Source of the DNA: Octopus vulgaris
Lineage: Eukaryota
Assembly: GCA_951406725.2 (NCBI GenBank)
Contig: OX597818.1
Coordinates: 127,038,001 to 127,102,000 of the forward strand
Reading direction: 5' to 3'
Length of the DNA: 64,000 bases
Shown: in pieces, positions 10,138-56,830 of the stretch
Layout of the letters: each line of letters starts with the position of its first letter
Numbering within the stretch: position 1 is the first letter of the stretch
Position numbers and translations under genes: made by a program
Notes under the pieces: generated by a model
Told to the model about the DNA's origin: nothing
What the model saw: only the letters and a program-made list of their open reading frames with translations
Database searches by the model: none

Positions 10138-10172
10138 ATTTCTGACGAAGAGCTCCGCTCGAAACGTGAAAT
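10138..10172 (+). ncRNA. Minimal type I hammerhead-like motif (PLE pseudo-LTR type)
   Basis: attt-CTGACGA-a-GAGC-tcc-GCTC-GAAA-CGT-g-aaat. The core is intact, but position 17 is G, which is non-cleavable. Confidence 0.6.
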
Positions 10173-16843: not shown

Positions 16844-17031
16844 AGAGTTTACGGAAAAAAAAAACAAAAGACGAAGATAGGTGGTGTACAAAACAAACAG
16901 ATGCATTAGTATAACGCTTAGGAATAGATAAAGTCTTTTACGTTTCGAGCCAACGCTCTTCTACAGAAAGGGACACAGGAATCAAGGAGAGAAACAAGTA
17001 GAGAAAAAATGTGTGTAGTGGCTAACGATCT

Positions 17032-17036: not shown

Positions 17037-17096
<60 letters not shown>

Positions 17097-17286
17097 GAGT
17101 GTATTTTTACCTCGTTAACAATTAACACGGAAAAAATAAATAAATAGTTACAAGGGCAGCAAAAATCTCACAAGTAAAGGTGTTGTAACTCCTTGTTTAT
17201 AAAGGTAGAAACTTCATGTTTACGTTGAATATTTTGAATAATATGAATAAAAAATGGAGTTAACGCAGGTGTAATCAAATATTTTT

Positions 17287-17372
17287 ACTTTCGACACACG
17301 TTTCGAAAATTCCACTGATACTATTCAAAAGAATAAATGGTATAAACAATGCAATCTTCTCCGCAGGAAAGT
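17287..17372 (-). ncRNA. Hammerhead ribozyme copy with core mutation (CUGCGGA)
   Basis: Mirror of 18687-18772 with an A6->C change in the core. Confidence 0.65.
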
Positions 17373-18686
17373 GAAAAAAAACGAAACTCGTCAATAAGAC
17401 ATTTTAGCAAAAAATGATGGATTTGTATAGCGATAGACAGAACGCTATTAATATTGTTTAAAAAAACCTTATATGATATAACGTCATAAGTAGCTAACAG
17501 AAAGAGTAAGGATATTAATAGTGAATGTTAAATATAAAGGAAATTAAAGTTTAAATTATATATAATGATAGAGACTACATATATGCACTAAATGTATGTT
17601 TTTGCCAATGCTTACATCTGTATGCTCGCTCTATAACCGTGTTTACTAGAGTATTTTTAGAAAAATAATGAAAAATGGCTCAGAATTACAGAGAAGACAG
17701 AATTTCTTGCCTTTGTCATATGGTATCGAAATTGAGAGGATCAACCATTCTAAATGAAATTGTTCATTGTGGTCTTTTAAATCCCAAATCAGTTTGCTGA
17801 GACCGGTACTATTCCGTTTATTTCTATCCCTAAATGTTGAGTAATGGATAGAAATTCTTTTAGATAACTCTAACGATGTGCTTCCAATGTAAAATCGTAC
17901 TTTATTACGAGTACTGATTATACACTGGTATATAGAATTTTTAATCTTAGAGTTACTTGACATAAACTTAATTCTATTGGAATTGACTTCAGATACAATA
18001 ACCTTGTTATTAATATTTCTAGAGGGTTGGATGGTATTAGCTAAATTAATGTTAGTATTAGTAAATGTATTAATATTTAACAGTTTGTTATTATGAAAAG
18101 ATATAATTTGCAAGAGATTTTTTGTGTTTGAAAAACCTATCCTAACCTTATGTGAATGGATTATTATCGATCTAAAAGTAAATATAACACCTTCAAAAGT
18201 AATTACGCTATGAATACTAGTAAAAATATTTGGTTAATAATTCCTTACGGGAGACAAATTAAATCTAATCTCCCACTGCTGTTTCGTCAAGCTATTGCTA
18301 GGAATTTTCCAAACAATCTAGATATTACTCTATAATCAATTCACATAAGGTTAGGATAGGTTTTTCTCTGTAATTCTGAGCTATTTTTCATTATTTTTCT
18401 AAAAATACTCTAGTAAACACGGTTATAGAGCGAGCATACAGATGTAAGCATTGGCAAAAACATACATTTAGTGCATATATGTAGTCTCTATCATTATATA
18501 TAATTTAAACTTTAATTTCCTTTATATTTAACATTCACTATTAATATCCTTACTCTTTCTGTTAGCTACTTATGGCGTTATATCATATAAGGTTTTTTTA
18601 AACAATATTAATAGCGTTCTGTCTATCGCTATACAAATCCATAATTTTTTGCTAAAATGTCTTATTGACGAGTTTCGTTTTTTTTC

Positions 18687-18772
18687 ACTTTCCTGAGGAG
18701 AAGATTGCATTGTTTATACGATTTATTCTTTTGAATAGTATCAGTGGAATTTTCGAAACGTGTGTCGAAAGT
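18687..18772 (+). ncRNA. Type I hammerhead ribozyme with extended stem II
   Basis: actttc-CTGAGGA-GAAGATT...AATTTTC-GAAA-C-gtgt-GTC-gaaagt. It has a 6-bp stem I, an intact core and a GUC cleavage triplet. Confidence 0.8.
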
Positions 18773-19056
18773 AAAAATATTTGATTACACCTGCGTTAAC
18801 TCCATTTTTTATTCATATATATATATATATGATGTGTGTAGTGGCTAATGGTCTATCATATATATATATTGCACTCTTCTTACAGCATTAATAGTTTTTA
18901 ACTCTTATTTCTAGCAATATGCGTATTTCGGTACCGTCAGTTACATTTAGCGACGATTAACTTTTTTCTTAACGGTAGTATATTACGTGTAAATATTTAT
19001 ATTAATTTTTAAATATACGTAAAATATAGGTTAGTGAGTTTTTTTTTTTAGAAATT

Positions 19057-19384
19057 TCACTACCAGTGGCCTAGCATGTATAAAAAATCAATAGACGACA
19101 TATTCTCAATATAAGATAGCGTACATTTAAACATTCAACAGGCAGTTTTTACACGCTAGAAGAAGTAGTCAAAACAACCAAAACCAAATTTAAGTGCAAT
19201 CTTCAAAAGGAATGAAAAATAAAAACTTTTACTTTGTTATTTTAATTTTAATTAAAATAATAAGGTGATTTTCTTTTCCCATTCCTTTTGAAGATTGCTC
19301 TTAAATGTGGTTTTGGTCCTTTTGACTTCTAGCGTGTAAAAATTTTCAGTTGAAGGCAGTTTTCTCTTGTTTTTAAATGTACAC

Positions 19385-21582: not shown

Positions 21583-21679
21583 ATATATATACGTTTATAT
21601 ATTTGTTTTGCAAGGTTTTTGATGTGAAATCGTGTGTTGAAACAGCTATTGTTGTATTTAGGAATGGCCATTTTGCCAG

Positions 21680-21729
21680 TTTAGCCACTGATGAGGTCAC
21701 AGAAGTGTGACGAAAGAACTCTGGCTGAA
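21680..21729 (+). ncRNA. Type I hammerhead ribozyme (canonical core)
   Basis: tttagcca-CTGATGA-g-GTCAC-agaagt-GTGAC-GAAA-G-aa-C-TC-tggctgaa. It has an 8-bp stem I, a 5-bp stem II, a minimal stem III and a CUC triplet. Confidence 0.85.
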
Positions 21730-21884
21730 ATAAGATTAAGATTAATGTAAAAAATAAATAACGCTGAAGCAAAGTAACACCAAATATATAGTCCATGTGT
21801 TTTTATTGGCTAAACTGGCAAAATGACCATTCCTAAATACAACAATATATATATATATATATATGAATATAATGTATCCATGTG

Positions 21885-26529: not shown

Positions 26530-26830
26530 TCTTCTACCTCCATTTTTCCACTTGTATCACCACCACTTACACCTACGCAGACATTCACTACTTCTCAACA
26601 TAACCCTTTTCCTTCCGGTCTTTCAAAATGTGACCTCGTGTGTACCGTTGGCGATTTTTTTTCCTTTGTCTTCCCTTCTCTGGATCTTTCCTTCTCCTAT
26701 GTTTCCGACGAAGAGCTCCGCTCGAAACGTTAAACCCTCCTTCTTTCCTTCTTTCCTGAGCGTCCAATAATACTATATTTGTTCCACGTCCTCGCGTTGT
26801 TGTGTTTTTTGTGCTTTCTTGTTTGGATTA

Positions 26831-26835
<5 letters not shown>
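26530..26835 (+). mobile_element. PLE pseudo-LTR-like unit with a minimal hammerhead at 26701-26735
   Basis: gttt-CCGACGA-a-GAGC-tcc-GCTC-GAAA-CGT-T-aaac. The downstream 100 nt are homologous to 10170-10275 and end at (TA)n. Confidence 0.65.
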
Positions 26836-46944: not shown

Positions 46945-46999
<55 letters not shown>

Positions 47000-47144
47000 T
47001 TATATATAGAGGGCATTATACATACATGCCAGAAGGCATTATACATACATGCCAAACGCTAAGAGGGACAATTAGTCATTTCTACCAAAAATATTACTAA
47101 TCCCACCGAATGCAATTTTTCAAAGTAAGACATTTAAAAAATAT

Positions 47145-47192
47145 AGACCTGTATCACAGTGATTTCATACTTACGTACTCATCAGCAGGCCT
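47145..47192 (-). ncRNA. Type I hammerhead ribozyme
   Basis: Minus strand reads aggcctg-CTGATGA-GTAC-gtaa-GTAT-GAAA-TCA-ctg-TGA-TA-caggtct. It has a 7-bp stem I, a GNRA-capped stem II, a palindromic stem III and an AUA triplet. Confidence 0.85.
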
Positions 47193-47292
47193 GAATGCAT
47201 TATAAATAAACAACGACCCTGCCCCGCTTAAGTCGATCAGCTAACTGTTCAACATCAACGAAGCACATGGGTGAGTTTACATATATTACATC

Positions 47293-47389
<97 letters not shown>

Positions 47390-47410
47390 GGTGAATACTC
47401 GTTATAAATA

Positions 47411-47675
47411 TCACCACCAGTGGCCTAGCATGTATAAAAAGTCAATAGACAACATATTCGTATTTCAAAATAGAAAATTACCCTTTAACAGGTAATTTTA
47501 CATGCTAGAAATAGCAGTCAACACGGCCAAAAACCACAATTTTATAGCAAATTTCGAAGAGGTTTTTATTTTTCATTTACTTCGAAATTTGCTATAAAAT
47601 TGTGGTTCTTGGCCGTATTGGCTGCTATTTCTAGCATGTAAAATTACCTGTTAAAGGGTAATTTACTTTTTTGAA

Positions 47676-47679
<4 letters not shown>
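47411..47679. repeat. Fold-back element (about 100-bp arms, 20-nt spacer) ending in (TA)n
   Basis: Arms at 47460-47559 and 47580-47679. The leader is shared with 19057. Confidence 0.9.
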
Positions 47680-55225: not shown

Positions 55226-56830
55226 ACAGACCAAGTCCATTCTACGGATTACCTAAAACACAAAAATTCACATATTTGCAAAGCTTGCAAAGATTCTCCA
55301 AGCCTATGAATTAATGTTCCCCCCACCCTACTAACCTCAAACTAAGACTCATCATTGTTGAGCAATTTCTTCGACATCCTACTCAAACCATTTCTAAATT
55401 ATGTGAAAAGTTTCAACAGGGATGACTTAGACATGCTTAACCACCTCCCGAAGACAATAAATGAAGGAACCCTGTTAGTATCATTCGATGTGGTGAACTT
55501 GTACACCAATATCCCACACGATTATGGTATAGAAGCAATTACCTTCAGGCTAGAAAAATACCCAGAAGAGATCCCAGGACGCATCAACCACAGATTCATA
55601 ATCGCAGCACTGAAATTCATCCTACTGAACAACTATTTCATGTTCGATACAGTTTACTATCGAGAAAAATGTGGAATTGAAATGGGAACCCGAGCTCCCC
55701 CAGTGATTGCGAACCTTGTAATGGGTTACCTAGAACTTAAAATATACCAATCATCACTACAAAAATGTGGCACCTTATTTCATTGCTATTTAAAGGAGAA
55801 CTGGAAGAGGTATTTGGATGATTGCTTTATACTTTGGAAAGATAACATGGACAAACTCCTCGATTTCAAAATAAGGCTCAACAATATCAATAGCAACATA
55901 TAATTCGCCATGGAACACAGCAACAAACAACTCCCTTTTCTTGACATCCCAATGAAAATAGTCAATAATCACATAGAAACAGACATCTTCTATAAACCCA
56001 CAGATTCAAAACAGTACCTATTATTCAACTCATGCCACCCCAAACACATAAAAATTAATATACCTTATAATCTAGCAGAAAGAATCTGTATCATAGTTTC
56101 GGACGCCAATAATTGTGAACGAAGACTCCTTGAACTCAGATCAATACCAATCGAGAGACATTACCCTAAATCATTAATAAATGATGGGATTAAACAAGCA
56201 AAGGAAATAGACATACGAACATTAAGGGAAGTTAACCAGACTTAAGAATACTCCCATACATCTAACCCTAGAAACAATGAAGCCTTCGAAATTATCATAC
56301 AAAATCTACCCATTCTCACATGAAATAATGTACAAAATTTTAGACTCACACAACATTATCAAGAGTAAAATGCAACCGAAATCATTGAAAAAATATTAAC
56401 CAACGCAATTCTGTATCCATTAACAACGGAACCAAAAGTGAAAAAATGCAATCGGCCTAACTGTGGCATATGCCCCCACATTTTGGAAGGTACAGAGTTC
56501 CACTTTGAACAAGGTGAAATATTTAAATCAAATTTCACTTGTACCTTGGAAAACCTAATCTATGCCATTATCTGCTTAGGGTGTAGTAATCAATATATTG
56601 GCCAAACAGGAATATCACTCCGTCGAAGAACCACCCTTCACAAAAAACAAATCCGCCACGCACAATACAGTCAGATACGGGTCCGTGAACACGTAGAAAG
56701 GAAGCTTAATCCTAACTTTCTAAATTTCCCCTTCTATCAACGTCTATCAATGTTCTCAGAACAACTCAGTACAGCAAAGAATGAACAAAGAGGCAACTTT
56801 CATCAATAGATTCCAACCACAATTTAACAT
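55226..56830 (+). mobile_element. Penelope-like element (Neptune-type) RT plus GIY-YIG, 5'-truncated pseudogene
   Basis: FYGLPK, LVSFDVVNLYTNIP, GIEMGT, RYLDDCF, LPFLDI, FYKPTDSKQYL..SCHP, a CxxxxCxxC linker and NLIYAIICLGCSNQYIGQTG..LRRR. It begins at a (TA)n tract. Confidence 0.93.

Follow-up and report, generated by a model that had tools for sequence, protein, structure and literature searches.

A stretch of 298 bp at positions 46997-47294 of the window (the whole 64,000 nucleotides of DNA analysed) carries a hammerhead ribozyme motif on its minus strand and is adjoined on both sides by perfect TA tracts. The question raised by this locus is what kind of element left the piece there, and in what form its ribozyme would be expected to act.

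The unit and its hammerhead motif

The window is AT-rich, animal-type DNA that is dense in microsatellites, with repeats reminiscent of octopus genomes, and positions no more than 3 nt outside a perfect TA tract make up only 0.45% of it. The original prediction of a non-coding piece flanked by (TA)n tracts is borne out by the junctions observed at 46996/46997 and 47294/47295, and insertion into (TA)n is seen at both ends of this one locus. The features of the region are the following, with the evidence for each in brackets.

46953-46996, no strand assigned: (TA)n tract at the 3′ junction of the element (sequence)
46997-47294, minus strand: 5′-truncated member of a repeat family that is young, abundant and hammerhead-bearing (contigs of public runs X10 and X5)
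47008-47054, no strand assigned: a self-complementary segment of 23 bp, duplicated in tandem close to the element's 3′ end (only some family copies have the duplication)
47145-47192, minus strand: type I hammerhead ribozyme motif (sequence, shuffles, fold; no listed substitution inside)
47151-47145, minus strand: stem I 3′ arm (sequence)
47151-47152, minus strand: predicted cleavage bond, 3′ of A17 (hammerhead numbering)
47152, minus strand: A17 of the AUA triplet (sequence)
47153-47163, minus strand: palindromic stem III, AUCAC-U-GUGAU, beginning at A15.1, with 5-bp arms and one central base (sequence)
47167-47178, minus strand: stem II, GUAC/GUAU, 4 bp, with a GUAA loop and G10.1-U11.1 at its base, 47178/47167 (pair probabilities 0.97-0.99)
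47179-47185, minus strand: catalytic core CUGAUGA, C3-A9 (sequence, fold)
Upstream of 47185, from 47192, minus strand: stem I 5′ arm, 7 nt (sequence)
47193-47293, minus strand: long single hairpin of 39 pairs (7 G-U), directly 5′ of the hammerhead (z -5.54)
47295-47341, no strand assigned: (TA)n tract at the 5′ junction of the element (sequence; family homology stops at 47294)

Read from its letters, minus-strand 47192-47145 is a type I hammerhead motif with a complete core, open at stem I, in which stems I, II and III have 7, 4 and 4-5 possible pairs. Every consensus position is present (C3 U4 G5 A6 N7 G8 A9, G12 A13 A14, A15.1-U16.1 and H17), the GAA of G12 A13 A14 lying between stem II and the palindrome. 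The anatomy is as claimed in the original prediction, including the GUAA tetraloop on stem II, and the AUA site and the cut predicted between 47152 and 47151 agree with hammerhead numbering. Stem III is palindromic as stated, but its arms are 5 bp long; they give 4 bp only when folded as a monomer hairpin, and a 10-bp duplex as a dimer. Likewise, the G10.1-U11.1 pair is present, but it is less unusual than had been supposed, since two elements in a survey of PLEs (Penelope-like elements), Penelope-13_HM and Penelope-17_HM, share a G-U at this position (PMC8557442).

The motif is real. That it arose by chance, or is a locus-specific ribozyme retained by the host, is exceedingly improbable. In favour of such a reading, and against the hammerhead call, Rfam reports no hammerhead family in 47000-47300 up to an E value of 10; over the whole window there is none among the best 150 of 186 rows, though other clear hammerheads are present there. 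Rfam searches of the unit and of the upstream hairpin return only snoRNA-type chance matches with E above 2, and no tRNA is detected in the window. On the other side, stems of at least 7, at least 4 and at least 4 pairs yield no chance motif on either strand when the whole window is dinucleotide-shuffled 300 times, while a laxer stem setting yields 7 motifs across the 300 shuffles versus 2 in the real window. The exact 33-nt hammerhead pattern has no match in metagenome contigs. A degenerate pattern has 33 chance matches there and none in viral contigs, and as a chance control none of the 33 metagenome matches to core plus stem III has a stem I of at least 4 together with a stem II of at least 3. 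Near-identical variant contigs, moreover, number in the hundreds.

The 23-mer duplicated at 47008-47054 resembles the 3′ arm of the upstream hairpin plus the stem I 5′ arm (47186-47208), being identical at 19 of 23 positions to 47208-47186, an internal match equalled by 9 of 2000 shuffles. An ancient duplication could account for it, or the segment could serve as an alternative partner for pairing. Loose contig ends fall within the duplicated segment at 47022 and 47038. To the right of the unit, 47387-47676 is a separate insertion, in which (GA)n and (TA)n enclose an inverted repeat of ~110 bp; it has a relative at 19048-19226 (76% alike).

A repeat family with a hairpin before its ribozyme

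Twenty of the 24 listed public runs (8 studies) contain at least half of the unit's 27 words, and none is recorded as RNA; 19 of the 20 are of organism A, and one may be the window's source. Contigs of four public runs were aligned to 46996-47296. Among these, X10 is guessed to be DNA and was read to about 80%, whereas X5 holds contigs of uncertain kind, for which RNA is only a guess. In X10, 998 contigs match the unit, 766 of them at 95% identity or more (383 at 99% or more, 383 at 95-99%, 193 at 90-95% and 39 lower). So many close variants indicate a high-copy, little-diverged family, and the conclusion that it is abundant is drawn from them; the summed contig depth on the unit, 2-5 x 10^5, is not usable as a copy number. 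Two X5 contigs are identical to 46997-47294 throughout, the 23-bp duplication included, and the window copy is therefore taken to be very recent.

The original prediction of a self-contained unit of about 300 bp does not hold, as family sequence runs on beyond 47294, in non-TA sequence, in 11 X10 and 2 X5 contigs. The window copy is therefore cut at its 5′ side. The X5 sequence shown beyond 47294 blends two contigs (agreement 0.7) and was left out of the codon reading. On the 3′ side, one X5 contig has at least 18 extra non-TA bases beyond 46997. No substitution is listed within the hammerhead (47145-47192) by a listing that starts at 5 in 100 and applies away from contig ends, and thus G10.1-U11.1 and AUA appear to be traits of the family rather than decay. 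In a single diverged X5 contig (depth 7.5), read by eye, core, palindrome arms and AUA are all retained, and at stem I pair 5 both bases are replaced, turning G-U into U-A. In run X20 (organism B) 2 contigs match, one of them identical over 202 nt at a depth of 2.8; a second host was not accepted on this one contig. The raw-read run X22 has 0 reads on the unit, which is no test of expression. Within the window and the run contigs, no parent element with a reverse transcriptase or endonuclease linked to the family was found.

The 102 nt before the ribozyme form one hairpin (z -5.5, with none of 200 shuffles as stable), a signal limited to the ribozyme's strand (plus strand z -1.4), and the base of the hairpin coincides with the 5′ edge of the window copy. 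Among 11 listed variants 10 leave the hairpin intact, as do 545 of 20000 random placements; 3 lie at unpaired sites and 7 of the 8 at paired sites preserve the pair, none of them being two-sided. In the 100 nt leading up to each of the window's three other hammerheads no structure is apparent (z -0.08, -0.46 and +0.55). The long hairpin before the hammerhead is a new finding of the present analysis.

The same 5′ third of the unit could also be read as the end of a coding frame, 30 codons at 47292-47203 with a stop 8 nt before stem I. This reading is very unlikely and was rejected. The frame is indeed open over its 30 codons, the two commonest X10 variants are silent in it, and its stop changes from TAA to TGA. 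However, these variants are explicable as U-A/U-G wobble changes in the hairpin, and two deletions of 2 bases each fall within the frame in one diverged contig. Among 1.84 billion proteins the frame has 2 matches, both bacterial-type repeat proteins and no true relative, and it has no match in Atlas. Protein searches of this frame leave no supported coding frame within the 298 bp, the rest of the element lying outside the window copy.

Predicted folding of one copy and of two

The original prediction held that stem III could fold as a monomer. Folding with ViennaRNA, in which Mg2+ and tertiary contacts are ignored and which has no control set of known monomer-active motifs, argues against this. 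The best monomer fold is inactive (-12.4 kcal/mol), with the core UGAU paired to AUCA, while the active monomer fold (-9.4 kcal/mol) has a probability of 0.003. Stems I and II are predicted at 0.72-1.0; stem III has a pair probability of 0.01-0.02 in the monomer and is predicted only in the dimer. The preference for the inactive fold holds in the context of the whole piece too. In addition, U1.7 is predicted to pair with A2.7 (probability 0.72-0.88), a pairing that, in other hammerheads, lowers the rate gain from the contact between U1.7 and loop II (PMC11875169).

For two copies, the best fold is the active double hammerhead (-30.5 kcal/mol), and the stem III self-duplex is put at -10.1 kcal/mol. 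The energy gain of the dimer is not specific to the palindrome, since shuffling the stem III interior matches it in 272 of 500 cases, and it was therefore rejected as a specific test. In trans at 10 uM, a dimer fraction of only about 22% is predicted. Taken as a model, these folds predict that the hammerhead cuts well only as a pair of copies. PLE hammerheads with a palindromic helix III are held to work as dimers (PMC4209133; PMC6765202).

Parentage of the family

Four hammerhead-bearing families are found in the window, at 10138-10172, 18687-18772 (with a twin at 17372-17287), 21680-21729 and 47145-47192. The unit was thought to be the third independent one and unrelated in sequence to the others; its independence stands, the count does not, as it is one of four. 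Shuffled sequences attain its best local scores against other hammerhead units in 242 of 300 and 77 of 300 cases, and blastn of the unit against the window gives only microsatellite-type matches. The proposed convergence of several families, on the other hand, finds no backing. TA targeting with a 3′ hammerhead is a published architecture shared by Penelope-like clades (PMC8557442), and another window hammerhead stands behind a Hydra-like endonuclease remnant, so that common descent is simpler than convergence. Shared Penelope ancestry most likely lies behind the several hammerhead units.

The Hydra-like remnant occupies 18233-17570 on the minus strand, within 17094-18233, and is that of a PLE endonuclease (GIY-YIG, E 0.0036) in which, by eye, CxxC and CxH are present and CCHH is absent. 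The hammerhead at 17372-17287, with one core change, follows it. On the plus strand, 18409-18818 is an inverted 3′ copy of the end of this remnant, 99% identical and ending in a TA run, whose hammerhead (18687-18772) is intact and has an unusually long stem II of about 55 nt. The unit at 21592-21845 (plus strand) lies between TA runs and has a minimal hammerhead at 21680-21729, with an extra base before a 6-bp stem II, a 2-bp stem III and a CUC site; a 41-bp inverted copy at its end gives it the layout of an inverted truncated PLE insertion. The fourth family has two plus-strand copies, 10138-10172 and 26697-26833, which are 85% alike and both have damaged hammerheads (GUG at the site; a CCGACGA core), the copy at 10138-10172 ending in a TA tract. 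Two hammerhead-like motifs of one family, at 16966 and 56947 (both minus strand), have a non-canonical core, with U at position 6 (CUGUAGA and CUGUUGG); stem II, GAAACGUA and a short stem I are otherwise in place, and the A6U common to both suggests a family trait. Finally, 55346-56809 (plus strand) holds a broken Penelope-like reverse transcriptase (Pfam RVT_1, E 4e-6) and GIY-YIG domain (E 2e-4); the linker reads CxxxxCxxC, and by eye the remnant looks Neptune-like.

A tie of the unit to PLEs or retrozymes is supported; with Hydra-clade PLEs its anatomy, its position and its target agree. The best explanation, and a moderately probable one, is that the unit is a recent, 5′-truncated, non-coding 3′ end (pseudo-LTR region) of a Hydra-type PLE. 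We infer its course as follows. The endonuclease of the element would have nicked the TA tract, and reverse transcription would have started inside the RNA, near 46997, the 18 or more further bases of one contig at that point being like the optional 'tail' of PLEs. Synthesis would then have proceeded through the 3′ hairpins, the still uncleaved hammerhead and the 100-nt hairpin before halting at the base of the latter, giving the 5′ edge at 47294. A lone copy would fold inactive, with the core UGAU trapped by AUCA and a pair between U1.7 and A2.7; in a tandem transcript of two copies the palindromes could pair, allowing a cut after AUA and the release of a unit-length RNA. Because a lone copy is predicted to be inactive and activity to need a tandem pair, the solitary window copy is likely to be inert.

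According to Craig et al. (2021; PMC8557442), Hydra-clade PLEs use (TA)n as their target and have a sense-strand hammerhead close to the 3′ end; their File S1 gives (TA)n as the insertion site of 26 of 27 Hydra families, an Octopus bimaculoides family among them. The hammerheads listed for the clade start 87-425 nt from the 3′ end, versus about 216 here by our own subtraction. For an anole PLE, reverse transcription was shown to begin internally and to use uncleaved RNA as template, with AT-rich targets and a 3′ tail that is optional (PMC11167929), and most PLE hammerheads are solo copies from truncated elements (PMC4209133; PMC6765202). PLEs in general are described as having 5′-truncated copies and an optional 3′ tail of 30-40 bp. 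A 5′-cut copy of the window's own Hydra-like remnant, with its hammerhead and its inverted 3′ copy ending in a TA run, would also resemble the unit.

The motif itself is similar to those of the Hydra clade but not typical of them, as judged from sequence. With the hammerheads of Hydra-2_Amil, Penelope-13_HM, Penelope-1_NV and Hydra-1_Obim it shares its type I form, sense orientation and place near the 3′ end, a 4-bp stem II with a tetraloop, a stem III palindromic around one base, an A at the cut, the (TA)n target and, in some, the G-U at 10.1-11.1. Among the 26 listed rows (PMC8557442, File S2), 17 have a palindromic stem III with 4-bp arms around one base and 12 have an A at the cut; all 26 have C15.2-G16.2 and GUH sites, and none has 5-bp arms. 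The unit differs in AUA with U15.2-A16.2, in its 5-bp palindrome arms, in the 100-nt upstream hairpin and in having no protein linked to it, and it shows no sequence likeness to Hydra-1_Obim by eye. Compared with the PLE type described in a 2024 paper (PMC11167929), it shares a palindromic helix III, predicted action as a dimer, occurrence mostly as solo copies of truncated elements and an optional 3′ tail; it is without the extra base between A9 and 10.1, its helix II is short, G-U replaces the conserved G10.1-C11.1, and its helix III is long.

Several points weigh against a Hydra-type parent: no reverse transcriptase or endonuclease is tied to the family, the cleavage site and arms are unlike all 26 listed rows, and the other three window hammerheads are without upstream structure, the hairpin suiting a retrozyme better. 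The summed contig depth is flat toward the 5′ edge over 300 nt, which speaks against heavy 5′ truncation, depth being a poor measure of this. Could the unit instead be the 3′ end of a PLE from another clade, such as Neptune, Poseidon or Nematis? Those clades carry hammerheads, Neptune is linked to microsatellite targets (PMC8557442), and the remnant at 55346-56809 is assigned to a Neptune-like clade by eye. However, their minimal hammerheads (PMC4209133) have a 7-8-bp helix II preceded by an additional base and a helix III that is nearly absent, as at 21680-21729 and unlike the motif here, which makes this origin improbable.

The main rival, a tentative but real possibility, is that the family is a non-autonomous, retrozyme-type element with a non-coding, hairpin-built monomer of ~360-380 nt, of which the window has a part. 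Transcripts of tandem arrays would be cut by the hammerhead, the monomers circularised, and a PLE would copy them into TA in trans. One X5 contig extends beyond 47294 by 94 nt, and the first bases of another are 18 new and 12 known ones; taking these 30 as the customary 30-base overlap would, by our own arithmetic, give a closed unit of 380 nt. The strong hairpin, the canonical sizes of helices I and II and the flat depth all fit such an element. On the other hand, no tandem or head-to-tail joint is seen in the 4 runs, where short contigs would miss a return of 12 bases or a gap of 82, and the window has one copy only. Canonical retrozyme hammerheads have a stem III of 1-2 bp, whereas the longer one here is Hydra-like, and TA targeting is absent from the retrozyme traits in the texts consulted.

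Animal retrozymes are described as non-coding, self-paired hammerhead repeats of 170-400 nt with circular RNA, thought to be PLE-derived (PMC7229834; bioRxiv 10.64898/2026.07.22.740005). The trait of a highly self-paired RNA of 170-400 nt is found here (z -3.3 for 47294-47055 and -5.5 for the hairpin, these being lengths of a partial copy). With the non-LTR retrozymes of Cervera and de la Pena (2020; PMC7229834) and Li, Clavereau and Pollet (2026; 10.64898/2026.07.22.740005) the unit shares non-coding, AT-rich, high-copy sequence, a type I hammerhead with a 4-bp helix II and a 6-7-bp helix I, self-paired RNA, a compatible size range and the supposed derivation from PLE pLTRs. Unlike them, its helix III is longer, its copy is 5′-cut and it sits in a TA tract; tandem arrays and circular RNA are features of the retrozymes. 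A Hydra-type PLE and a retrozyme are both known kinds of element; what separates the two readings is solely whether the protein is encoded by the family itself.

A combination of the two is doubtful: a spreading, TA-targeted retrozyme of ~380 nt, derived from a Hydra-clade pLTR in a cephalopod-type genome, whose hammerhead would be a switch, the stem III arm AUCA locking the core in the monomer or circle until the pairing of two copies frees it. If this were true, multimers would be cut and circles spared; how metazoan retrozyme circles avoid self-cleavage is stated as open in PMC7229834. Literature searches returned no published report of a cephalopod retrozyme or of this family, either of which supplements or repeat libraries such as Repbase/Dfam could list.

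Hammerheads at the 3′ ends of TA-targeting PLEs are already established, as are the retrozymes that derive from such elements, and one further family adds little in itself. The hammerhead here is set apart from all 26 listed Hydra-clade motifs by its AUA site and longer palindrome, and the conserved 100-nt hairpin before it is a candidate protein-binding or reverse-transcription stop signal. The predicted fold, off as a monomer and on as a dimer, offers a cheap test of how such ribozymes are regulated. As the family seems young and abundant, an active master copy may exist for study.
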